A stretch of 64,000 bases of DNA from an uncultured Chloroflexia bacterium (GCA_963703345.1 OY969814.1:1216001-1280000); one strand, 5' to 3'. Shown: positions 32,607-47,129, counted from the first letter of the stretch. Notes: a model not told the origin generated them from the letters alone. Made by a program: numbers and translations.

Positions 32607-32930
32607 ATGGCTATCGCACTGGTTATCGAATTCCCCGGCGTGAGTCGGGAGCAGTATGACAGGACAATGAGAGACCTCCGCCTCGATGGGGCCGACCCGG
32701 AGTCGCCGCGGGGCATGCTTCTCCACATCGCCGGACCTGCCGAAGGCGGCTGGCAAGTCGTCAACGTGTGGGAGACGCGAGCCGACTTCGACCGGTTCCT
32801 CGACAGCGATCTGGGACGGGCACTGAAGAATGCCGGAATATCGACGCCCAGGGTGAGGGAGTTCTCCGTCTACAAGGCGCTCCGCTTGCCGAAGGCCGTC
32901 GGAGCGGGAACGGGCGGAATGCGCTCCTGA
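32607..32930 (+). CDS. Small hypothetical protein (ABM/dimeric alpha-beta barrel-like)
   Basis: HIAGPAEGGWQVVNVWETRADFDRF; AAGGA RBS. Confidence 0.7.
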   Translation: MAIALVIEFPGVSREQYDRTMRDLRLDGADPESPRGMLLHIAGPAEGGWQVVNVWETRADFDRFLDSDLGRALKNAGISTPRVREFSVYKALRLPKAVGAGTGGMRS

Positions 32931-33247: not shown

Positions 33248-35293
33248 TTGGATGCCGACGAAGTGACACACTCTCCCGCTGCGAAAGGCGGGGCTCATGA
33301 GCGGCCCGTTGGATGGTGGCAGGCTCGTCCGAAACTGCCACGATGGGTCGGCGAGCTGATCCCAAGGCTGGTGCTTGTCACCGGCGTCGCGCTGGCTGCC
33401 CTGGGGCAGTTCGTCAGCGGCCGTTCATTGGAGGGGCGGTTCGCTTTTCTCCACGGCGCGGCCGGGGCCTTCCGCGGTATCTATCCAAACCCGCAGACAA
33501 TGGTCCTTGCCGTCGCTCTCCTCGCGACCGGCGGGGTATTGTTCGCTGTGGGCGCATGGCTGCTGCGTCGAGACGAGGGCGAGACCGTTTCCGCTGAATC
33601 GATTGGTTGGCCCCCACTGCCGGGTCTTGCCCTGGCAGCGATAGCGATTGGACCGTTCGCCTACCTGCTACTGAACCTCTCCCACCACAAGTATCGCGAG
33701 TGGTACCCTTACCTCCTTGTCGCGTCAGTCAGTGCATTTGCGGTCTTCTGGGCGCTGAAGAGGCCAATCAGGTTCAAGTTGAGCCGGCCGCCGCGAACCG
33801 TCTACGTCGAAGTCGGCGTCGTGGCGCTCATCACGGGCGTGTTTGTGGCTCTAAACGTCCGTGACCTCACCTCCTGGTTATACTCGGCCAACGGCGATGA
33901 GTATTCTTTCTTCGTCGCCGCGCATGAGATTGGACATGGCGTCACCCACAATCTCTTTTCCCAAACGGGTGTCTACAGCAACCACCCCTGGTTGACCTCG
34001 GCTTATCAGGCGATGGTGATGAAGGTGCTCGGGTTCGATCAGTTTGGCTGGAGGATGACTTCGGTCCTGTCTGCAGCGGCCGTCATTCCGCCTCTATACC
34101 TGCTCGTGCGTATGCTCTTCGGGGTCCGCGTTGGCCTGTTTTCGGCTACGATCTTCGCAGCTTCCCACTACATCCTCGACTTTGCCCACTACGGCTACGA
34201 CAACCTGTTTCCTCTCTTCCCGACCGTGCTCGCGCTCTGTCTGCTGGTATTCGGGTTGCGAAGGAGGAATGCGCTGGCGCTGTTCGGTGCGGGCTGCGCG
34301 GCCGGACTCGGCTTCTACACCTTCTACTCATCGCGCGCAGCCATCGTTATCATCGGACTCTATCTCATCACGCTCGGCCGGCGGGGGCTCCGCCCGCAAG
34401 TGGTCTTGCCCGTTGGCGTGGGCTTCCTGTTGCTGGTGGCGCCAATGCTCGTCGTCAATAGGCTGGACGTCTTCAGAGCCATGGGCGACCAGTCGCTCAT
34501 CGGGTACGATCAGTCGTTTGTGGGTGAGATTAGCCGGCATCTTCGGGAGAACGTGCCCATACAGATGCTTGCCTTTAACGTCAACCAGCGTCCCATCGGG
34601 TCGCTGCTCGATCCGGTTTCAGCGGTGCTTGCTGTCCTCGGTCTGATCTATGCCTCCATTCGAGTCAGGCACGGAGGTCAACGCTTGCTTGTGATATGGT
34701 TTGTGATAGGCATCACCGCGACCGGCCTCTTTTTCCCGAAACCGGGTGTCGCCGAGACGAGGCTCATGTATATGGTGCCGGTGATGGCCGTCCTCGCCGG
34801 CCTGGCGCTCGACCGCGCGCTGGCGGTCTTCCCTCCGCGCGATTGGCCACGGCCTGCTGCCGCGACAGTTCTTCAGGGTACGTTCGCGGTGGCGGTCCTG
34901 GCCGCAGTAGTTACCTTGAACTTGTATCGATTCTGGCATGAGATCCCGCTGAGGGCCAAAAGATCGCCGGAGGCTGTCGCCATGCGGGCGCTGTTCTCGC
35001 CGGAGTGCCAGTCGCCTGCGCTCATTGTGGGCCAGTTCCCGGATCCCCTCCTGAAGCCGGTTGTCTCTACGTATGCGCTGGGCGACAGGACGCCGCGCAT
35101 CGCCTCGTTCGAGCAGGTACTCGATGCGCCAAACTTTAGTGTTGGCGCATCGTGCGTTATCTTAATGCCCGAGGACGATAAGCAATCGGACCAGGTGCTG
35201 GCGCAGCTCAAGACGGGCCTAGGCACTTATAACGAAAGCCGGATGTGGGATATCGCGGGAATCACGTATGTCGATGTCCTGACCCGTCGCTGA
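33248..35293 (+). CDS. Glycosyltransferase family 39/ArnT-like membrane protein
   Basis: Multi-TM; NGDE luminal motif, HP, GWRMTS, GLGFYTFY. Confidence 0.75.
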   Translation: MDADEVTHSPAAKGGAHERPVGWWQARPKLPRWVGELIPRLVLVTGVALAALGQFVSGRSLEGRFAFLHGAAGAFRGIYPNPQTMVLAVALLATGGVLFAVGAWLLRRDEGETVSAESIGWPPLPGLALAAIAIGPFAYLLLNLSHHKYREWYPYLLVASVSAFAVFWALKRPIRFKLSRPPRTVYVEVGVVALITGVFVALNVRDLTSWLYSANGDEYSFFVAAHEIGHGVTHNLFSQTGVYSNHPWLTSAYQAMVMKVLGFDQFGWRMTSVLSAAAVIPPLYLLVRMLFGVRVGLFSATIFAASHYILDFAHYGYDNLFPLFPTVLALCLLVFGLRRRNALALFGAGCAAGLGFYTFYSSRAAIVIIGLYLITLGRRGLRPQVVLPVGVGFLLLVAPMLVVNRLDVFRAMGDQSLIGYDQSFVGEISRHLRENVPIQMLAFNVNQRPIGSLLDPVSAVLAVLGLIYASIRVRHGGQRLLVIWFVIGITATGLFFPKPGVAETRLMYMVPVMAVLAGLALDRALAVFPPRDWPRPAAATVLQGTFAVAVLAAVVTLNLYRFWHEIPLRAKRSPEAVAMRALFSPECQSPALIVGQFPDPLLKPVVSTYALGDRTPRIASFEQVLDAPNFSVGASCVILMPEDDKQSDQVLAQLKTGLGTYNESRMWDIAGITYVDVLTRR

Positions 35294-35499
35294 CCGGCGC
35301 CTCGGAGCGAAGAGGGAAGTGGCGACCTCAAAGGAGTCGAAGCGAGGCAGCCCGGTGGGCGATACAGACACCATCAGCGGTGAATCTCCTGAGGGCAGGT
35401 CAATGGCTTCTGCGGCGTCCTTTCGCCCGCATTGATCAACGCCTTGCGCGGGAGTAGATTGGCTTCATGGAAAGTCGCCCGAGAGCAAGGAGATACGTG

Positions 35500-36780
35500 A
35501 TGAAACGCTGGTCATTCGTCGCACCTATCCTTTCGCTAGTCGCGGCCGGCATCGTCTTGGCCGGCTGCTCGAACTCGAAGGAGGAAACATCGGGCGCGAC
35601 GCCCGGGGGTCCGGTGCCCGGCGTCACCGACACCGAGATCCTGCTCGGGACGCACATGCCGCTGAGCCAGACGCCGGCCGCGGCCTGGGGCGTTGTCGCT
35701 GACGGCATGAAGGCCTACTTCGGGTACGTCAACTCCCAGGGTGGCGTCTATGGGCGCAAGATCAAGCTGATAGTCGGCGATAACCAGTACGCCGCGCCGG
35801 TCGCGGTGGAGGTTGTGCGGAACCTGGTGGAGCAGGATGGAGTGTTCGCGATCGTGGGTGGCCTCGGCGACTCATGTCACCTCGCCGTCATGGATTACCT
35901 CGCGGAGAAAGGCGTTCCTGACCTGTTCATCGGCGGCGGCATGCCACAGTTCACCGATCCCATCGTGAAGACGCGCTTCAGCATGGTGACCGACTATGAT
36001 ACCGAAACGAAGATCAACACGCAGTACATGAAAGAGCATTTCGCCGGCAAGACGTTAGGCATTATCTATGAGAACAACGAGGGCGGTAACCTGGAGTTGC
36101 AGCGGACTGAGGAGGGGTTGGCCGGCTCAGACATCAAGATCGTCTCCGAGCAGGCGTACGATTTCACCAATTTCGACCTCACTGCCCAGGTGCAACGCCT
36201 GAAAGCCACCAACCCCGATTTCGTCTTCGTGATAGGCAACCCGGGCTCCCTGGCCAGCGCCTTGAAGGTGGCGCGCGAGATCCTCAACTGGGACGTACCT
36301 TTCATGACCAGCGCTGTCTCTGCCGTGGAGATGACGATTGCGCTCGCCGGAGCCAGCAACGCCGAAGGTCTGGTCAGCTTCACAACGGGCAGGATGATCT
36401 CTGAGACGGACGATCCGGGGGTGCAGCGCGACATCGCGCTGATGAAGCAGTTCGCGCCCAGCGTACCGCCGAGCAGCCTGACGGAGTACGGCATAAGCAC
36501 CGCTGAGTTGGTCGTGCAGGCACTGAAGAACGCCGGCCCGAACCTAACACGCCAGAGCGTGGTCGACGGGGCGGAGCAGATCCGCGGTTACTGCTGCATC
36601 GCTTGCATTGCACCGGTCAACCTCAGCCCGACCGATCACCGCCCCGACGAGGCAGAGTGGCCCGAGCAGGTGGTCGACGGGAAGTGGGAGCGCAGGTCAG
36701 ACACGCCGATCAGCTACGAGTCGACGCCCAGCGACGTCACCGCGTGCGAGAACGGGGAGCCGGTCCACAAGGGCCAGTAG
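35500..36780 (+). CDS. ABC substrate-binding lipoprotein (paralogue 7)
   Basis: Start MKRWS after AGGAG; lipobox LAGC; GVTDTEI and VNSQGGVYGRKI. Confidence 0.9.
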   Translation: MKRWSFVAPILSLVAAGIVLAGCSNSKEETSGATPGGPVPGVTDTEILLGTHMPLSQTPAAAWGVVADGMKAYFGYVNSQGGVYGRKIKLIVGDNQYAAPVAVEVVRNLVEQDGVFAIVGGLGDSCHLAVMDYLAEKGVPDLFIGGGMPQFTDPIVKTRFSMVTDYDTETKINTQYMKEHFAGKTLGIIYENNEGGNLELQRTEEGLAGSDIKIVSEQAYDFTNFDLTAQVQRLKATNPDFVFVIGNPGSLASALKVAREILNWDVPFMTSAVSAVEMTIALAGASNAEGLVSFTTGRMISETDDPGVQRDIALMKQFAPSVPPSSLTEYGISTAELVVQALKNAGPNLTRQSVVDGAEQIRGYCCIACIAPVNLSPTDHRPDEAEWPEQVVDGKWERRSDTPISYESTPSDVTACENGEPVHKGQ

Positions 36781-36832
36781 GTCAGGCTTCGGCGGCCGTG
36801 CCTGGGGTGACCTCAGCCGTGCAGGGTGGTCT

Positions 36833-36980
36833 TGGTGGGCGATGCAGGGCTCGAACCTGCGGCCTTCTGAGTGTAAAGCATCTGCGCCTGAGCGCTGTGC
36901 AACAGATTCAGCACCCCTGAGCGAAAACGCGGAAGTTATCATCTGGAAAATGGGCCATTAGGCGCGACTGCGACTAGTCC
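36833..36980 (-). repeat. tRNA-Val 3' half plus conserved arm, copy 1 (distal)
   Basis: TGGTGGGCGATGCAGGGCTCGAACCTGCG..GTGTAAA then GCATCTG...GGAAAATGGGCCATTAGGCGCGACTGCGACTAGTCC. Confidence 0.95.
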
Positions 36981-36990
36981 CACCTGTACG

Positions 36991-37377
36991 TCACTGCCGA
37001 GAAATAATGTCCTTGAATGTTACAGGGTCTGTCGCGTAGAGAACCGCTCGTTCCAAGGCTTCTTCGCGGAAACTATGAACCTTGAGATAGTCGGGGTTGT
37101 TGGCCATTTTGAGGAACGCCTTACGGGACGGATATTGGACGAGCATCACAATATCCCACGTCTCTATTCCATTGAGCAACTCTTTTGCCTTGCCGAAATA
37201 AAGCAGCTTGCCGCCGACGTTTTCGACGAAGGGCCCCGATTCCTTGATGTACCGAAAATAAGCCCCGCGGCCTCCTTCGTTCTTAAACTTCAGGAGGTTG
37301 AGCATGACAAATGGTCCTTCATTCGTATTAGCGGCTAATTCCTGGAATTGATCTTTGTTGGTTTTGATGCCAGTCAT
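36991..37377 (-). CDS. DUF1330 family protein
   Basis: MLNLLKF...WDIVMLVQYPSRKAF..M...Y..VH..REEALER; lower GC than the flanks. Confidence 0.8.
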   Translation of the reverse strand: MTGIKTNKDQFQELAANTNEGPFVMLNLLKFKNEGGRGAYFRYIKESGPFVENVGGKLLYFGKAKELLNGIETWDIVMLVQYPSRKAFLKMANNPDYLKVHSFREEALERAVLYATDPVTFKDIISRQ

Positions 37378-37420
37378 TCTATGCTTTCTCCTAAAAGAAT
37401 GGGATGTAAGAAAAGCCGTC

Positions 37421-37469
37421 TGGAGGGCCGTGAGGGGTTCGAACGCTCGACTCCCGGATTAGAAGTCCG
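37421..37469 (-). repeat. tRNA-Arg(TCT) 3' fragment (anticodon arm to CCA), att scar
   Basis: Reverse complement CGGA-CTTCTAA-TCCG...GTTCGAA...GGCCCTCCA; no 5' half. Confidence 0.7.
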
Positions 37470-37595
37470 CGAGTCGTTTGGGCCATACCGGGCACCTGCG
37501 GATCCTGTGGTCTTGCCCGCGTTGACATCTGACGACAGGATTACACTGGTTCTTCAGGGCTGCTGTCTGCGGCTGCTAGGGCGTCGCCGCGACGG

Positions 37596-38042
37596 CTAGT
37601 GCCTGCTTCGGGCAGAGGTCGCTGCAGATCCCGCAGCCGCGAGCGGGGCAGGCTGCGAAGTATCCTGGACTCCATCCATAATCGGATGCCAACCGTCTGA
37701 GCCTTCCCCTTGCGTAACTGCCTGGGCCGCATCATCCCCGGAGGCGGCGCTCTCCGAGGCCTGCTCAGAAAGACGGAGCAGGCCCTGAGCCAGCTCTTCC
37801 ATGCTGTAAGGGCCCTGTCGGCGGTGGCGCATCAGGGCCTCAACGTTCACCGAATAACGGTTGCGCCGGCCTATCTTTTCCCGCGATATCATGCCGTCCT
37901 CCTCCAGAGCCCTGAGGATGGAGAAGGCAGCTCTGTCTGTGATGCCGACGGCAAGAGAGATATCGCGCTGGGTCGAATGTGGGTGGTCGATGACGTCGAT
38001 CAGGACAAGGGCGTGATTGGTGAGGAAATCCCAATGAGCCAT
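37596..38042 (-). CDS. Winged-helix (MarR/AsnC-like) transcriptional regulator
   Basis: WDFLTNHALVL...TQRDISLAVGITDRA..ILRALEEDGMISREKIGRRNRY; GGAGG RBS. Confidence 0.85.
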   Translation of the reverse strand: MAHWDFLTNHALVLIDVIDHPHSTQRDISLAVGITDRAAFSILRALEEDGMISREKIGRRNRYSVNVEALMRHRRQGPYSMEELAQGLLRLSEQASESAASGDDAAQAVTQGEGSDGWHPIMDGVQDTSQPAPLAAAGSAATSARSRH

Positions 38043-38062
38043 GTTTTTTCCTCCAAAAGGGC

Positions 38063-38090
38063 TTGACAAGACCGAAAAGGGAAGTACAAT
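38063..38090 (+). promoter_or_regulatory. Sigma70-type promoter facing the repeat/USP region
   Basis: TTGACA-16 bp-TACAAT. Confidence 0.55.
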
Positions 38091-38286
38091 GCTGGTAAAA
38101 AGTAACGGGGTATGAGGTTCATGGTATGCCTGTCTGGAATGTGGTAGCCGGTAACACGTAACCTGGTATGAAGTTCCTGGCACGTCGGTCTGGCATGTGG
38201 TAACCGGTCTTCATTGTCACGAATCATTATTCATGATAGGCGCTCCAAAGTCAAGCGGTTGGAGCGACAAAAGAGCCAAGAATCCC

Positions 38287-38559
38287 GGCAAGGGCCGGAT
38301 AGCCAGAAAGCCGTGGACAGGAGAGATCTCTGAGGCCGTCCATTCAGGGAGGATTCGGAGCCCGTCGTCGCGGAGGGGGAGTAGGGGGTAGGCCACTAGT
38401 CAGGACTGGGCGACACGGGCGTCAGTGGTGACCGGGCCTGCGGAGAGAGGTGATGGGCGATCGGATACGGGGTCCGAGGGGTACCCCGCCGGGCGGCTGG
38501 CCAGGGTCGGCCTGTCCCGCCCCGTGGGCCCGGTCAATCCAACACCAAGCCTACGTTGG
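38287..38559 (+). repeat. ~270-bp non-coding element, copy A
   Basis: Highly similar to 39078-39333; contains the GACCGGGCC...GGCCCGGTC inverted repeat. Confidence 0.9.
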
Positions 38560-38578
38560 AGGTCGGAGGTAGGACGCC

Positions 38579-39028
38579 ATGTACAAGAAGATGCTGGTCC
38601 CGGTGGACGGTTCCCTTCGTTCGGAGGTCGTAGTACGCCATGCCGCCGAGACAGCGAAGGCATTTGGCTGCACCATCAGGCTGCTCACGGTCGTCGATCT
38701 CGACAAGCGCAACGGCAAGGTGACTCAGGGCGGGGACTCCGATGAGGTGGCGAGCCTTGCCTGGGTCGAGTCGCAGATAGAGAAAGCCGAGAACCACCTG
38801 CGACCGGTGGCGGAGCGCTTTGAGGACGAGGGCCTGAAGCCGGAGATGGAAGTGCGCTTTGGGAACCCGTCGAGCGAGATCCTGAAGGCGGCCGCCGAGT
38901 ACGGCACGGACATCATCGCCATGGCCACGCGCTCGCGACGAGGCGTCGCGCGGCTGATGTTCGGCAGCGTGGCGGACCAAGTGCTGAAAGAGTCGCACGT
39001 GCCGGTCCTGCTGATAACGGCGGCTTAG
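38579..39028 (+). CDS. Universal stress protein
   Basis: MYKKMLVPVDGS...GNPSSEIL...DIIAMAT..RR...FGSVADQVL...PVLLI. Confidence 0.93.
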   Translation: MYKKMLVPVDGSLRSEVVVRHAAETAKAFGCTIRLLTVVDLDKRNGKVTQGGDSDEVASLAWVESQIEKAENHLRPVAERFEDEGLKPEMEVRFGNPSSEILKAAAEYGTDIIAMATRSRRGVARLMFGSVADQVLKESHVPVLLITAA

Positions 39029-39077
39029 CCGTCGGGCCGGACGAGCGCCAGATAGCGACTAAAGAAACAAAAATCGT

Positions 39078-39333
39078 GGCAACGGCCGGATAGCCAGAAC
39101 GCCGTGGACAGGAGAGATCTCTGAGGCCGTCCAATCAGGGAGGATGGGAGCCCGTCGTCGCAGAGGGGGAAGAGGTCACTAGTCAGGACTGGGCGACACG
39201 GGCGTCAGTAGTGACCGGGCCTGCGGAGAGAGGTGATGGGCTATCGGATACGGGGTCTGAGCGCTGCCCCGTCGGGCGGGGTCAGCCTATCCCGCCCCGT
39301 GGGCCCGGTCCATCTCAGCACCAAGTCTACATG
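39078..39333 (+). repeat. ~260-bp non-coding element, copy B
   Basis: Direct repeat of 38287-38559 with small indels. Confidence 0.9.
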
Positions 39334-39385
39334 GTGGGCGATCAAAGTTGGAAGTTAGAGTCTGGAGAGTGAATCTGGGCGGTTC

Positions 39386-39534
39386 TGGTGGGCGATGCAG
39401 GGCTCGAACCTGCGACCTTCTGGGTGTAAAGCATCTGAGCCTGAGCGCTGTGCAACAGATTCAGCACCCCTGAGCGAAAACGCGGAAGTTATCATCTGGA
39501 AAATGGGCCATTAGGCGCGACTGCGACTAGTCCC
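39386..39534 (-). repeat. tRNA-Val 3' half plus arm, copy 2
   Basis: Near-identical to copy 1. Confidence 0.95.
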
Positions 39535-39797
39535 GGTGGAAGCTCTGCGCAGTGGCTTCGTAAGTACGAAGCTGGTCTTCAAACGTGGACACAGAGCCTT
39601 GCCATCGGAGCAAGCACAGTTCGGTCACGACAAATGGTGCCTATGGGAGTCACACGCTGGAGTCGTTTCCGGGGGCAGGTCAATGGAAACTGGCGAAGCT
39701 TCGGACCCTATGGGACTGCCGCATTCTGGCGGCGCGGTGTATAATCTGGCGCGACATGGAAACGAACGTGCTCTATGGCGACAAAGGAGGCGAGCTA

Positions 39798-39968
39798 GTG
39801 TTTGAGTACAGAATCGTCAAGTCCAACACGCATGCCGGTCTTGAGGAGCAAATCAACAAAGCAGCCGCTGAGGGCTGGGAGCCGATAATGGTCTACGCTT
39901 GGAATACGGGATGGGTGACCGCAGCTCATGCTGTCCTGCTGCGGCGTCCTGCGCCCGGGGCCGTGTAA
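39798..39968 (+). CDS. Small DUF4177-like protein
   Basis: GTG start after AAGGAGG; FEYRIV...LEEQINKAAAEGWE; TG-preceded TATAAT at 39740-39745. Confidence 0.7.
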   Translation: MFEYRIVKSNTHAGLEEQINKAAAEGWEPIMVYAWNTGWVTAAHAVLLRRPAPGAV

Positions 39969-40011
39969 GCCCCTAGCGGCTGGTACGTGAAGATCGGATA
40001 GAAAGGTGGCC

Positions 40012-40040
40012 GAGGGGCCGCCCTCAGGGGCGGCCTTCTC
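40012..40040. terminator. GC-rich hairpin after the DUF4177-like gene
   Basis: GAGGGGCCGCCC-TCAG-GGGCGGCCTTCTC. Confidence 0.5.
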
Positions 40041-40179
40041 ATTACCAGTCGGGCATGCTAGCTGTACCTCGGCTGTCGCCCGTCGTTGCGTGTGGAGGGG
40101 CTTGTCTCTCGACGACGGGGCGGCGCGGCCTCTCCCTTTTCGAGGCAGGACGCCCCGACTCGCAATTCGTTTGGAGTTC

Positions 40180-40326
40180 TGGTGGGCGATGCAGGGCTCG
40201 AACCTGCGGCCTTCTGGGTGTAAAGCATCTGAGCCTGAGCGCTGTGCAACAGATTCAGCACCCCTGAGCGAAAACGCGGAAGTCATCATCTGGAAAATGG
40301 GTCATTAGCTGCGACTGCGACTAGTC
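40180..40326 (-). repeat. tRNA-Val 3' half plus arm, copy 3
   Basis: Near-identical to copies 1 and 2. Confidence 0.95.
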
Positions 40327-40505
40327 TTGGTGGAAGCTGGGCGTAATGGCTTCATAAGTGGTCGGGCGAGAAGCAATGCAGTCGACGAACGGATACCGCC
40401 AGCCTGGCCGATAGATAGGGCAGGTAACAAGGGTGGTAGGACCGGAGAGTGGTCACCGGCCGATATCTTCCTGTCCTTGCTCGGCAGCGCGCAGGTCGCG
40501 GATGT

Positions 40506-41186
40506 CTAAGCCGCAGTCTCGTCGTCTCGCTTGTGGCGATGCAACAAGTTGCGGAACCGGTCATGCACGCCAGCTCGAGTCTGGCCGAGTTTCTCTTCGC
40601 CGTTGGGCCCCACCGGTAGCGACCAGTCGTCCCCAGCTTTTGGCCATTGGTCGGGGTCGGGCGGGCCTTGAATTTCGACTCCGTCAGACGCGCTCGGCTC
40701 TGCGGGCTGAGACTCGAGATAGACCTCTTCTTCCAAGGGCAACGGTATGGAATCATCGCGAAAGACGTCCACAGTTTGAGACTTAAGATATTCGTCTTCA
40801 TCTGGAGGCGGTGGAGCCTCATGGACAACGCTGTCTACGGGTTGAGACTCGAGATGGAGCTCCTCATCTGAGGACGACGGTGCGACCTCGTCGCCGAGGT
40901 CATCCACGATTTGAGACTGAAGATCAATCTCGTCATCTGAAGACGGTGGAGCCTCGTCGACGACGCTGTCCACCGGTTGAGATTCGAGATAAATCTCGCC
41001 ACCTGAGGGCGACGGTGTAACTTCATCGCCAAGGTCCTCCACGGTTTGAGACTGAAGATCTTCCTCTTCACCCGAGAACTGAGGCATGCCTTCGTAGCGT
41101 GCGTTGTCGTTGCCGACCTCAGCTAAGCGCTTCAGAGCCCACGCACCGAGAGCCGCGACTATTGCTAACGTCAGGAATCTGCGCAT
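40506..41186 (-). CDS. Membrane-anchored acidic repeat protein
   Basis: Start MRRFLTLAIVAALGAW after GGAGGTG; about six 20-aa units (LxSQxV) alternating two variants. Confidence 0.7.
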   Translation of the reverse strand: MRRFLTLAIVAALGAWALKRLAEVGNDNARYEGMPQFSGEEEDLQSQTVEDLGDEVTPSPSGGEIYLESQPVDSVVDEAPPSSDDEIDLQSQIVDDLGDEVAPSSSDEELHLESQPVDSVVHEAPPPPDEDEYLKSQTVDVFRDDSIPLPLEEEVYLESQPAEPSASDGVEIQGPPDPDQWPKAGDDWSLPVGPNGEEKLGQTRAGVHDRFRNLLHRHKRDDETAA

Positions 41187-41364
41187 TTCTTCACCTCCAT
41201 GTGTCAATGAATTATCGGCACACTGCACGATCGGAGGACTGCATTAAGGCTGCTGGTTGGCACCATCTTCACTTAGTGTGGGTTCTGCAGACGGCTGGGG
41301 TCCGCAAAAGGGAGTTTTGGGAGAATTGGAAGTTAGAAGCTGGAAAGTGAATCTGGAAGGTTTC

Positions 41365-41512
41365 TGGTGGGCGATGCAGGGCTCGAACCTGCGACCTTCT
41401 GGGTGTAAAGCATCTGAGCCTGAGCGCTGTGCATCAGATTCAGGACCCCCGAGCGAAAACGCGGGAGTCATCATCTGGAGAATGGGCCATTAGCCGCGGC
41501 TGCGAGTAGTCC
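41365..41512 (-). repeat. tRNA-Val 3' half plus arm, copy 4
   Basis: Same element with several substitutions. Confidence 0.95.
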
Positions 41513-41766
41513 TGAGCGCCAAAGCGATCGTTCCTCGCTCTGGGCCGGGGTTCGGATGACTCGCTGAGCTAGCGCTTAACTACTTTCAGGCATTTCACCC
41601 ACATCGTCGCTCCTTTCATCGTTGGCAGGCGCAGCGAGCATGGTTTCTTCACCTCGATTGGCTGGCCTTTCACGCGGCAACCATATCGCCGTGATAGCCT
41701 CAGCTTAACGAGCAGTCGCCGACGACACCTGGCTCATTCAGCAGATGCGAAGAGGAGGGATATCCA

Positions 41767-42402
41767 ATGGCAACACCGCTTGATGCTATAACCAGCATCC
41801 ACAAGGCTTTCCGTCGCGATATCGCAGAAATTGACGATGCGGCATACAAGGCCGCAGCAGGCGACGGTGATTTGTCGGTTGTTGTGGATCGACTTCGCTT
41901 TTTCAGCGAGATTTTGCGATGGCATGCAGACGGCGAGGAAAAGACGGTGTTCTCGACCATGGACAGAGTGGCGCCGCTCGTGGCGAGGCCCTACTTCCTA
42001 GATCACCGCCAGTTGGACATGATGACCGATGGCCTGGCCCAGGTGTCGGCTACGTCAGACCCGCTTATTACAGCCCGGGCCACGGCGGCGCTCAACACAC
42101 ACTTGCGAATTCACCTCGACAAAGAGGACGTACATCTCTATCCGATTCTGCGCGAGCGTACCCTAGCGGACGAGCAGGCCTCGATAGTCGGAACGATGGC
42201 CGGAGAAGTGCCGCCTGAGCGACAGCCCGAACTCATACGCTGGTGGTTCCCCCTGGTAGGACTCGATGATCGAGAGGTCACGATCAGCGTCTGGAAGGTG
42301 CTGATGCCTGAGCCCGTGTTCGCCAGGCTGAAACCGCTTATCCAAGACACCATTGGACCGGATTGGGCGGAGCTAACGCGGCGAATCCCAGGACTAGCCT
42401 AG
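41767..42402 (+). CDS. Hemerythrin-domain protein
   Basis: HKAFRRD, HADGEE, DH and HLDKED motifs. Confidence 0.85.
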   Translation: MATPLDAITSIHKAFRRDIAEIDDAAYKAAAGDGDLSVVVDRLRFFSEILRWHADGEEKTVFSTMDRVAPLVARPYFLDHRQLDMMTDGLAQVSATSDPLITARATAALNTHLRIHLDKEDVHLYPILRERTLADEQASIVGTMAGEVPPERQPELIRWWFPLVGLDDREVTISVWKVLMPEPVFARLKPLIQDTIGPDWAELTRRIPGLA

Positions 42403-42587
42403 CATGATTCCATTCCCCGGCCCCTGCACCGGCGACGAGCAGGGTGGTCCGCCTTCGATAGCACGGTAACTTTCGGGCTTCAACTTCGGGGCTGGAAGCT
42501 GGGGCCATAGCGCATGGGGGGCGGACTTAGGAGACCGTCGAGACCGGAGGCGCTAAGCGACGCCTATCATTCGTTTGGCAGCGGTTT

Positions 42588-42706
42588 TGGTGGGCGATGC
42601 AGGGCTCGAACCTGCGACCTTCTGGGTGTAAAGCATCTGAGGCTGAGCGCTGTGCATCAGATTCGGCACCCCCGAGCGAAAACGCGGAAGTTATCATCTG
42701 GAAAAT
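42588..42706 (-). repeat. tRNA-Val 3' half plus arm, copy 5 (proximal; arm diverges after GGAAAAT)
   Basis: Same element; GACTAGT reappears at 42741-42747. Confidence 0.93.
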
Positions 42707-42742
42707 CTGATGCTGCGAATGAGGCTAATGGCTGGCGCAAGA

Positions 42743-43453
42743 CTAGTGCGTTCGTTGCACCATCGAGCTCAATAAGTGTACAGCTTCATCGGGAAGACCG
42801 GAGTCGCCGATGCGAAGGATATTCAGTCTGAAGATGAGTTGAGCCTTCCTTGAGAAGGCTATTGTGAGAATGACGGGGACTATTTGGTTTCCGCTGGGGA
42901 GGGTTGCGTTGACTTCCGCACCCCACGATTCATCGCCGATCTGTGGGAAATCGAGTTTCTGAACGGCTCCGTAGGATACGCCCTTGCAGGAGGTGTTGGC
43001 CAGTTGCGATATCCCATCGGCCATATAGTTGAAAGCCATGGCGGCACCGGTCTGGTCTTGGAAGACGTGTATTCCTGAACTTATCTCGAAGACGCCGTCC
43101 GAGGCTGTCTGCGTTCCTTCGGATGGTCGGAAATCGTTGCCGTAGCCTCCGAGTTCGTGAGAGGCGTCGAACACCGCCCCGGTATTGGGATCGCACGAAG
43201 AGCTAATGGCGTTTTCCCGTGTCCCTGCTCCAGACCGCGCGGGGTCGAGGGCGAATGTACTGTAGGTAATAGGCAGATCACCAGCCCTCAGAACCATATT
43301 AGGAAGATCTGCCAGGGAAAGGGGGGTAGTTGTTGGGCTGGTGCTCGTTGCCACGCTTTGCGGGGTGGAGTTGCCTCGGCCACAGGCGCATATTACCAAC
43401 GCTATGCCGGTCGCAATGAGGAGGAAGAGTCTCGGGTGCATGATTCGCCTCAT
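42743..43453 (-). CDS. Hypothetical lipoprotein
   Basis: Signal peptide with ICAC lipobox, S/T linker; minus-strand TTGACC-16-TATAAT at 43557-43584. Confidence 0.75.
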   Translation of the reverse strand: MRRIMHPRLFLLIATGIALVICACGRGNSTPQSVATSTSPTTTPLSLADLPNMVLRAGDLPITYSTFALDPARSGAGTRENAISSSCDPNTGAVFDASHELGGYGNDFRPSEGTQTASDGVFEISSGIHVFQDQTGAAMAFNYMADGISQLANTSCKGVSYGAVQKLDFPQIGDESWGAEVNATLPSGNQIVPVILTIAFSRKAQLIFRLNILRIGDSGLPDEAVHLLSSMVQRTH

Positions 43454-43608
43454 GTAGGCAGATCGGCGTGCTCCTGCGGCCGTTCGGAGGTCGGATCGCC
43501 TGCGAAAGGCCGAACCGAATCAAGAGCGAGTTGTTCAGGGAACGGGTAGTGTGGCCATTATAGGCCTCCCAGACGCTGGGTCAACCATGCGGGGGTTGCT
43601 GAGAGTTC

Positions 43609-43685
43609 TGGTGGGCGATGCAGGGCTCGAACCTGCGACCTTCTGGGTGTAAACCAGACGCTCTATCCAACTGAGCTAATCGCCC
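43609..43685 (-). tRNA. tRNA-Val(TAC), intact
   Basis: GGGCGATTAGCTCAGTTGGATAGAGCGTCTGG-TTTACAC-CCAGA...GTTCGAG...TCGCCCACCA; promoter TTGACG-17-TAGGAT at 43706-43734. Confidence 0.96.
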
Positions 43686-43819
43686 ACGCTTCGGCAGGCG
43701 TTTCGATCCTATAGGGGAGGTCCCGCCGCGTCAAGCCGGAGAGCTCGCTCCCAAGTCTTCGCGCGGATTTCGAGGGAGTGCCGGCATGCGCCCGGGAGGC
43801 GGGCGGGAGAGCGTTCCAC

Positions 43820-43852
43820 AAAAGGAGAGTCCGCCTTTCGGCGGACTCAAAA
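43820..43852 (-). terminator. rRNA operon terminator
   Basis: GAGTCCGCC-GAAA-GGCGGACTC hairpin followed by TCCTTTT on the minus strand. Confidence 0.8.
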
Positions 43853-43854
43853 GT

Positions 43855-43972
43855 CCTGGCAGTGGCCTATTTTCCGCAGGGAGTTGCCCCCCAAGTATCG
43901 TCGGCGCTGAGGCGTTTCACTTCCGTGTTCGGGATGGGAACGGGTGGTTCCACCTCGCTCTGACCACCAGAA
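43855..43972 (-). rRNA. rrf: 5S rRNA
   Basis: Reverse complement contains CCCGTTCCCATCCCGAACACGGAAGTGAAAC. Confidence 0.95.
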
Positions 43973-43982
43973 CGAACAAACT

Positions 43983-44057
43983 TGGTAGCGGGAGGAGGAT
44001 TCGAACCTCCGACCTTCGGGTTATGAGCCCGACGAGCTGCCACTGCTCCATCCCGCG
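43983..44057 (-). tRNA. Initiator tRNA-fMet(CAT)
   Basis: C1:A72 mismatch, GGG/CCC anticodon stem, CTCATAA loop. Confidence 0.95.
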
Positions 44058-44135
44058 ATGCCAAACTGCCTGTCGCAGGCACAGTATCAACTGAACGTAG
44101 GTAGCGTCTGCACTCTTTCGCGCGCGTATTAATGT

Positions 44136-47129
<2,994 letters not shown>

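Follow-up and report, generated by a model that had tools for sequence, protein, structure and literature searches.

We examined a tandem array of small gene-carrying units at a tRNA-Val(TAC) gene of an uncultured bacterium from a soil or sediment habitat, within a window of 64,000 nucleotides that covers positions 1216001-1280000 of a single 2.28-Mb contig (OY969814.1, assembly GCA_963703345.1); coordinates are those of the window unless marked "genome". The head of the array is the intact tRNA gene, which adjoins an rRNA operon, and five co-oriented repeats (junctions R1 to R5) divide the adjacent DNA into units (Table 1). An original prediction, made from the sequence alone, had given the starts, spacings and make-up of these repeats, and all three were reproduced: each repeat joins the last 45 nt of the tRNA, beginning with its TTTACAC anticodon loop, to a non-tRNA arm, the order in tRNA sense being arm, anticodon loop and the remaining tRNA through CCA. 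The arm is 71-72 bp long and extends ~30 bp further in four of the five copies. An arm profile, built partly from the five copies that it scores, gave them 81-88 bits, as compared to at most 13 bits for the best non-member in the genome.

The five-unit extent that had been proposed held for the junctions, which are all real, but not for the array, which is longer. Judged by its unit ends, it is at least six units deep: beyond R5 lies a distal unit that has lost its arm here and is a complete arm-bounded unit at seven other catalogued places. Unit 5, moreover, consists of two fused units, one carrying genes for a universal stress protein (USP) and a winged helix-turn-helix (HTH) regulator and the other a DUF1330 gene; relatives have a Val junction between the two parts, in place of the tRNA-Lys(TTT)-type junction of this genome. 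The short tRNA-like remnant at the distal end of unit 6 was matched by 37/1000 shuffles and is weak on its own, and a longer tRNA-Val remnant lies at the matching place in two related genomes (G002 and G003). Between this end and a conserved gene at 32607 the sequence varies among congeners.

Table 1. Features of the tRNA-Val array, listed from the tRNA outward (window coordinates; ORF, open reading frame)
Feature	Position	Strand	Remarks
Intact tRNA-Val(TAC)	43609..43685	-	attB target, now attL
Predicted 7-nt crossover	43647-43653	-	anticodon loop of tRNA-Val
Unit 1	42633..43653	-	1021 bp; without homologue among other catalogued units
Cargo 1	42743..43453	-	236-aa lipoprotein-like ORF; signal peptide and Cys judged by eye
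Junction R1	42588..42704	-	72-bp arm 42633-42704; anticodon loop and tRNA 3' half 42588-42632
Unit 2	41410..42632	-	1223 bp; homologues at tRNA-Val in G006, L081
Cargo 2	41767..42402	+	hemerythrin/HHE protein (PF01814)
Junction R2	41365..41512	-	arm with 30-bp extension
Unit 3	40225..41409	-	1185 bp; left end of the autonomous element retained over ~57 nt
Cargo 3	40506..41228	-	240-aa acidic protein; three 135-nt repeats at 40699-41103
Junction R3	40180..40326	-	arm, loop and tRNA 3' half
Unit 4	39431..40224	-	794 bp; stands free here, as in L120
Cargo 4	39585..39968	+	small ORF; weak DUF1737 match below cut-off; real start probably later
Junction R4	39386..39534	-	arm, loop and tRNA 3' half
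Unit 5	36878..39430	-	2553 bp; composite of USP/HTH unit and DUF1330 unit
Universal stress protein, unit 5	38579..39028	+	PF00582
Winged-helix regulator, unit 5	37596..38183	-	PF13412
tRNA-Lys(TTT)-family attachment junction	37422..37484	-	inside unit 5
DUF1330 protein, unit 5	36991..37377	-	second copy is a free 576-bp unit, genome 1025925-1026500
Junction R5	36833..36981	-	tRNA half with two changes, core site with one
Unit 6	35368..36877	-	~1.5 kb; encodes a periplasmic binding protein; without its arm here, with intact arm in other arrays
Cargo 6	35467..36780	+	Peripla_BP_6 substrate-binding protein (PF13458)
Probable degenerate tRNA-Val 3' remnant	35354..35367	-	14 nt; older junction

As had also been claimed, a domain search found a tyrosine or serine recombinase nowhere in the window. 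The six tyrosine-recombinase and four resolvase-domain matches of the genome all lie elsewhere, the closest tyrosine recombinase being ~155 kb from the array, and the array has no resident intI-attI-Pc platform at its head. Significant Rfam matches over 35000-44200 were limited to rRNA and tRNA, and a promoter scan was uninformative (4 sites, with 2.5 expected).

Every junction carries an inverted core around a 7-nt centre, and the secondary sites described below keep the pattern TCTG-N-7nt-(C/G)CAGA(A/G)GG. An inverted core with the crossover in the anticodon loop is typical of one class of tyrosine recombinase (PMC4383910).

The arm occurs 12 times in the genome: five times at tRNA-Val, three times in a second array that starts from a non-tRNA site (genome 1919367-1923381), and at four single sites (genome 978908, 1025925, 1981988 and 2124980). 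At genome 1025925-1026500, foreign DNA, loop and tRNA half follow each other at one end and arm, loop and foreign DNA at the other, which is the pattern expected from the insertion of a circle at a secondary site. Among 60 relatives 13 have the arm, with differing cargo (10/17 within the family and 3/13 in one other family, two of them weak); it was further found in 24 stretches of species genomes and 65 stretches of metagenome contigs, with no match in the plasmids or viral contigs searched. The search for the arm that had been suggested thus yielded arrays whose unit sets and ranks differ among genomes, as well as an integrase-bearing element with the same arm. We rejected a viral origin, as neither the arm nor an integrase relative was present in viral contigs and no integrase relative in phage records at 1e-40. 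A coding role for the arm was also rejected: short opposite-strand ORFs cross it, yet its copies differ by frameshifting indels.

We take the host to be a member of the Dehalococcoidia, because the named records with the arm are Dehalococcoidia or uncultured Chloroflexia, apart from one labelled Bathyarchaeia and one unclassified bacterium. In L049, a contig of a genome labelled Bathyarchaeia, arm and core stand without the tRNA half, and mis-binning is the likelier cause.

The integrase-bearing element, which lies on a metagenome contig (L073), is the autonomous element with the same arm that the original prediction had called for, and a possible actor in trans. It measures 4535 bp, sits at tRNA-Val(TAC) and ends in the arm (87.6 bits); from the intact tRNA-Val it carries in order a 302-aa tyrosine integrase (PF00589 with a SAM-like core-binding domain), cargo, a Rep_trans protein (PF02486), an 83-aa protein, more cargo and the arm. 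The catalytic motifs of the integrase look intact by eye and, since the SAM-like domain begins at residue 14, there is no space for an N-terminal arm-binding domain. With its intact tRNA, displaced 3' fragment and homology starting at the loop, L073 tested as a tyrosine-integrase element of the tRNA-targeting class with anticodon-loop crossover set out in PMC4383910. Its right junction is 99% identical over 191 nt to genome 1920489-1920679, and an element of the L073 type is likely, from these resemblances, to be the helper of the array units. Rep_trans proteins may act as replication initiator, MobT-like relaxase or both (PMC5704250), and either role or both is possible in L073. The 83-aa protein (L073:860-1111; phrog_2842, function unassigned) accompanies the integrase and Rep_trans genes in elements of the Val, Gly and Pro kinds and is a candidate directionality factor or regulator. 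A motif like the core-proximal end of the arm (CAGATG-type) recurs at the outer edge of the arm and upstream of integrase genes; we infer from analogy that it may be an accessory integrase site, the analogues being attI and the Tn4430 resolution site.

At 75% identity or more, the L073 integrase is matched by 16 protein clusters. In the order, 12/93 genomes have a relative at 50-58%, adjoining Gly, Phe, Pro, Arg or Lys tRNAs (a tRNA is present at 13/15 loci), and in the class 6/401 genomes have one at 59-64%: two adjoin Val(CAC), one Val(TAC), two Gly(TCC) and one no tRNA. The best match in the genome studied here (55-58%) belongs to a tRNA-Gly(TCC) element at genome 1464478-1470301, which has a homologous arm and the same three genes (integrase, Rep_trans and small gene), all intact-looking. 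A tRNA-Gly(CCC) element is also present (genome 2237080-2241657), with its integrase reduced to a 51-residue stub; both Gly elements copy the tRNA 5' half, not the 3' half.

To describe the units as a population we called them between consecutive junctions and catalogued 98, with a median length of 1305 bp (n=95, leaving out one duplicate, one 97-bp miscall and one empty 135-bp unit). A whole integrase was present in 1 and integrase fragments in 6 of the 98, two of these being the same locus. At the left, 29 of 89 non-redundant units align to the first 140 nt of the helper with a score of at least 30, the clear cases over 30-81 nt; in the array itself a helper-like left flank is clear only in units 3 and 5 among the five, and the attR-type end (right arm and core) and tRNA 3' half are retained in 5/5. 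Arm identity to the helper arm has a median of 93% (80 units), and similarity falls sharply at 71 bp from the loop. Since integrase pieces, helper left ends and such arms occur in units, these can be read as cut-down helper elements, demonstrably, at the level of sequence, deletion derivatives of a small integrative element. Arm identity showed no age gradient by rank (0.91, 0.89, 0.94 and 0.92 for ranks 1-4; arm-difference values inflated by contig-end trimming were excluded). The cargo has been under purifying selection, with ratios of nonsynonymous to synonymous change (dN/dS) of 0.06-0.65 in the pairs computed and 0.17-0.54 for the conserved cargo of unit 6.

Comparison between genomes revealed that units differ in rank and swap order, recur in more than one species, and stand at non-tRNA sites too. 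The 576-bp DUF1330 unit, which stands at a non-tRNA site here, matches an arrayed unit of L084 end to end (497/530 identical, 94%). A small-protein unit, presumably DUF3303-like, is at rank 1 and USP-proximal in G003 and USP-distal in G007, with 764/795 positions identical, as compared to 81-89% in the flanks and 92% in the USP stretch. The gene of unit 4 is USP-proximal here and USP-distal in G002 and G003, where the unit is fused behind DUF1330. The hemerythrin unit is 93.8% identical to that of G006, against 77% in the flank and 66% and 86% in other core stretches. Unit 6 has different next units in L088 and L098 and is 88.9% identical to its counterpart in another genus, as compared to 84-87% in congeners; in 20/21 pairs of its homologous cargo, 17-29% of synonymous sites differ. 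Outside the positions that vary among intact tRNAs, 56/76 ungapped displaced tRNA halves are unchanged.

The arrays are also polar. The USP, DUF1330 and binding-protein units keep one order in G000, G002, G003 and G008, with the proximal units differing, and since the distal order is conserved the array appears to grow at its tRNA end. Together with the arrays of relatives, this supports the proposal of serial site-specific insertion at a regenerated tRNA, newest unit next to the gene.

We therefore regard the array, as the probable explanation, as a stack of integrase-free derivatives of a small tRNA-Val element, re-mobilised singly by an integrase from another element. A unit comprises tRNA 3' half, cargo, 71-bp arm and anticodon loop, and would be born by internal deletion or cargo swap of a helper element. 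A cognate or sister tyrosine integrase, supplied from another element, would excise and re-insert units one by one, with the crossover in the anticodon loop, a 7-nt stretch flanked by inverted core sites. Arm, loop and tRNA 3' half would all be on the excised circle, and insertion of this circle would therefore rebuild the tRNA and displace older units outward. Mobility would be episodic, with junctions drifting and dying between helper visits, and transfer between cells might occur by co-transfer with a Rep_trans helper, by transformation or in particles. Circles and trans-mobilisation are what we infer from the unit structures and positions.

Several observations weigh against this explanation. 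The metagenome loci are short and were chosen by arm motif, so that arm conservation is overstated and long units with an integrase are under-represented, and the incomplete units L091 and L109 carry rep genes. A cognate integrase was found neither in this genome nor in 93 genomes of the order (best 50-58%). The order of the USP, DUF1330 and binding-protein units is conserved in four congeners. Rare arm variants are evenly spread in 39 arms that were not pattern-selected (p = 0.11), and arm differences of 9-16% between homologous DUF1330 and hemerythrin units are not below the synonymous differences of the cargo (5-20%), and selection on resident arms is thus not clearly indicated. A palindromic insertion in 13/95 displaced tRNA halves would spoil the rebuilt tRNA. 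The check for circles and empty sites that had been proposed was negative: none was seen in the contigs of 4 runs, the metagenome loci lack terminal repeats or self-junctions save for one look-alike left end in L070, and 8 congeners held no empty version of two tested secondary sites, because the flanks themselves vary in congeners. A public-run search listed 20 runs, none with half of the query words and no RNA run among them. One back-going joint (40061 to 39381) was rejected as a circle, as it is accounted for by a variant of unit 4 that is shorter and has an ordinary junction after it. Both bodies of evidence fit an array that grows at the tRNA end and has an old, inherited tail, its units moving in episodes and decaying between them.

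The palindromes are ~20 bp long, lie at the start of the T arm and differ in sequence (L027, L029, L031, L032, L035, L075, L082, L085, L088, L097, L099, L110 and L120), which suggests that a miniature element has targeted this place repeatedly. At genome 1147895-1148968 a tRNA-Ser copy is interrupted by a similar palindrome.

The units might alternatively be pure relics, each having arrived with its own integrase, lost it in place and never moved alone again; sharing between hosts would then reflect vertical descent, cis-mobilisation with an intact neighbour, or homologous recombination between the 115-150-bp repeats. The integrase fragments and partial left ends inside units fit such a history, as do the conserved distal order, the evenly spread arm variants and the tRNA halves broken by palindromes; a three-step route to cis-mobilizable elements (CIMEs) has been published (PMC5704250), and the Gly(CCC) element, with its 51-residue integrase stub, is decaying alike in this very genome. 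However, the 576-bp unit has the same end-to-end structure in the ectopic and the arrayed position, which would require an identical deletion twice, and the order swaps and the high identity across species speak for movement. A whole integrase is also rare at rank 1 (one rank-1 unit), where relics predict the newest intact element, and we consider the relic history unlikely. A possibility that we rate somewhat higher, while still doubting it, is a variant of our preferred explanation that concerns the source of the enzyme: the resident tRNA-Gly(TCC) sister integrase would be the standing trans enzyme, with Val, Gly and other units in one network of relaxed specificity. The Gly arms are homologous to the Val arm (0/1000 shuffles reach the score), the tRNA-Gly and tRNA-Val core sites are alike, close relatives of the Val integrase occur at both Val and Gly tRNAs, and Val arms (genome 978908 and 2124980) and a Val tRNA half (genome 2126234) are found on non-Val half-sites. 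On the other hand, a supported branch (97/96) separates the Gly from the Val integrase, the Gly element copies the 5' and not the 3' half of its tRNA, and many array-bearing genomes are without such an integrase at the cut-off used.

Single-gene units of the median length given above, polar growth and reshuffling also recall a true integron, whose resident integrase takes up cassettes without promoters by way of attC-like sites folded from single-stranded DNA. The folding of a junction was, however, no better than that of shuffles (z +0.5 to -0.8, both strands, one junction), and the helper integrase scored 65.6 bits with the integron integrase model TIGR02249, whose cut-off is 265; on these two grounds we rejected the integron reading. 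The array moreover lacks an integrase, and its cargo stands both ways round with long leaders; a true integron is thus highly improbable. Least of all do we expect the array to be a product of misassembly or of simple tandem duplication. In favour of this are the metagenome origin of the genome, the repeat length of 115-150 bp, and the lack of a listed contig that covers the entire array. The chance of this is nevertheless negligible, because the copies differ, many independent assemblies share the architecture, and a contig from a public run, possibly the source sample, is identical to 40191-40613 across a junction; the cargo, too, is unrelated from unit to unit. The concern about assembly raised in the original prediction was therefore not borne out.

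Hybrid junctions were observed in the genome as well. At 978908 and 2124980 (genome) the Val arm is joined to a half-site of another att family, with altered 7-mers, and at genome 2126234 the Val tRNA half is joined to such a half-site; 978908 and 2126234 have the same 7-mer, oppositely oriented, possibly the trace of a translocation or of a large inversion. Displaced tRNA fragments of other families are present, namely Lys(TTT), Gly(CCC), Gly(TCC), Pro(GGG), Arg(CCT), selenocysteine tRNA and transfer-messenger RNA (tmRNA), many of them away from the parent gene and in either orientation, and several such cassette families may be present in the genome. In a tRNA cluster at genome 1810383-1811088, three tandem 103-bp copies open with the 5' end of tRNA-Asn and are accompanied by a 3' fragment.

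Most of the cargo labels first proposed were supported by Pfam (hemerythrin, USP, DUF1330 and winged HTH); the label of unit 4 was reduced to the weak DUF1737 match, and two proteins are without a family, cargo 1 in Pfam, PHROG and NCBIfam searches and the acidic cargo 3 in Pfam. A shorter homologue of cargo 3, recognised by eye, lies downstream of a hybrid junction (L003:8452-8838, genome ~2124451-2124837), and the acidic cargo therefore appears with two att families. Unit 6, the most widespread unit, encodes a substrate-binding protein with no permease or ATPase partner in the unit. A GC-rich structured repeat of ~245-280 bp flanks the USP gene on both sides (38263-38540 and 39054-39330), and a paralogous HTH gene has a third copy next to it (genome 550738-551013). 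This repeat was found in 11/93 genomes, all of the family (loci L159-L168), and has no Rfam match; its consensus fold has 71 pairs, just 5 of them with two-sided change, and it is possibly a non-coding RNA or leader.

If units move singly, accessory genes in uncultured Chloroflexota are gained and reordered one at a time by means of parts that a standard island finder discards: Islander rejects candidates below 2 kb or without an integrase, and its list for 2168 genomes has only 4 tandems with at least three members (PMC4383910). The question whether CIMEs are dead relics or passengers able to move on their own can be put to a plasmid assay, for which a candidate helper integrase is at hand together with the 71-bp arm, the core and naturally occurring secondary sites. 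The compact tRNA-Val integrase, predicted to lack an arm-binding domain, is furthermore a candidate integration tool for Chloroflexota. More speculatively, and with considerable reserve, these Dehalococcoidia might run a tRNA-anchored cassette economy, in which hundreds of different single-gene units, all with standard ends, pass from species to species as integrase-free circles; 4.5-kb helpers on rare visits, or resident sister integrases that cross-react between Val, Gly and Lys sites, would insert, excise and reorder them. Such an economy, if true, would take the place of an integron, but with phage-type att sites in double-stranded DNA and without a resident platform.

Among known systems the array comes closest to CIMEs, which have lost integration and transfer genes, keep attL and attR, and are stacked at tRNA 3' ends with hybrid internal junctions (PMC5704250). 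The array units likewise have no integration or transfer genes and retain attL/attR-type ends, and L073 with the same arm, together with integrase fragments in sister units, marks descent from an integrase-bearing element of the same specificity. Several streptococcal integrative mobilizable elements (IMEs) combine a tyrosine integrase with Rep_trans (PMC5704250), as L073 does. The array differs from CIMEs in that its units are ~0.6-2.5 kb long, mostly single-gene, up to six deep and integrase-less as a rule, and occur solo at secondary sites and in swapped order; no intact IME or integrative conjugative element adjoins it. The solo copies and order swaps, as read from these genomes, appear to be pointing to trans and not only cis mobilisation, and cis transfer is possible as well, since in L073 the intact element is followed by the start of a known unit.

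The ssrA islands of Dehalococcoides belong to the same host class and are likewise stacked in tandem at one RNA gene (PMC2764846, PMC3146451); 15/31 are without an integration module and were proposed as possible CIMEs (PMC3146451). Unlike the array, they target tmRNA with a 20-bp repeat and serine recombinases (DsiA/DsiB), those with a module being ~12 kb (PMC2764846, PMC3146451), whereas the array has tRNA-Val, a tyrosine integrase, anticodon-loop crossover, a 71-bp arm and ~1-kb units. Prochlorococcus tycheposons are cargo elements of 10-20 kb that target tRNAs with a tyrosine integrase, which they carry by definition; newcomers displace older ones inward, leaving partial tRNAs and broken integrases (bioRxiv 10.1101/2020.12.28.424599). 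Their integrase-less remains are described there as degenerate with unclear ends, whereas the ends of the array units are precise and conserved. The array units lack the tycheposon integrase and replication module, and the helper is 4.5 kb with Rep_trans.

Integrons and the pdif modules of Acinetobacter plasmids also consist of small non-autonomous units whose tyrosine recombinase is encoded elsewhere, and integrons grow polarly. The label "integron-like" given to the array at the outset is apt for the outcome, but not for the mechanism, as the array has no attC-type hairpin, IntI-type integrase or resident attI/Pc platform, its sites are not Xer dif sites, and a unit rebuilds its tRNA target. 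A literature search, with most subscription papers beyond reach, returned no description of the element family or of minimal tRNA-Val arrays, and the claim of an undescribed system holds to that extent, but the CIME and accretion scheme itself was already published. The array departs from that scheme in its single-gene scale, in that intact elements are almost absent, in the insertion of lone units at secondary sites, and in junctions that are hybrids with sister att families.

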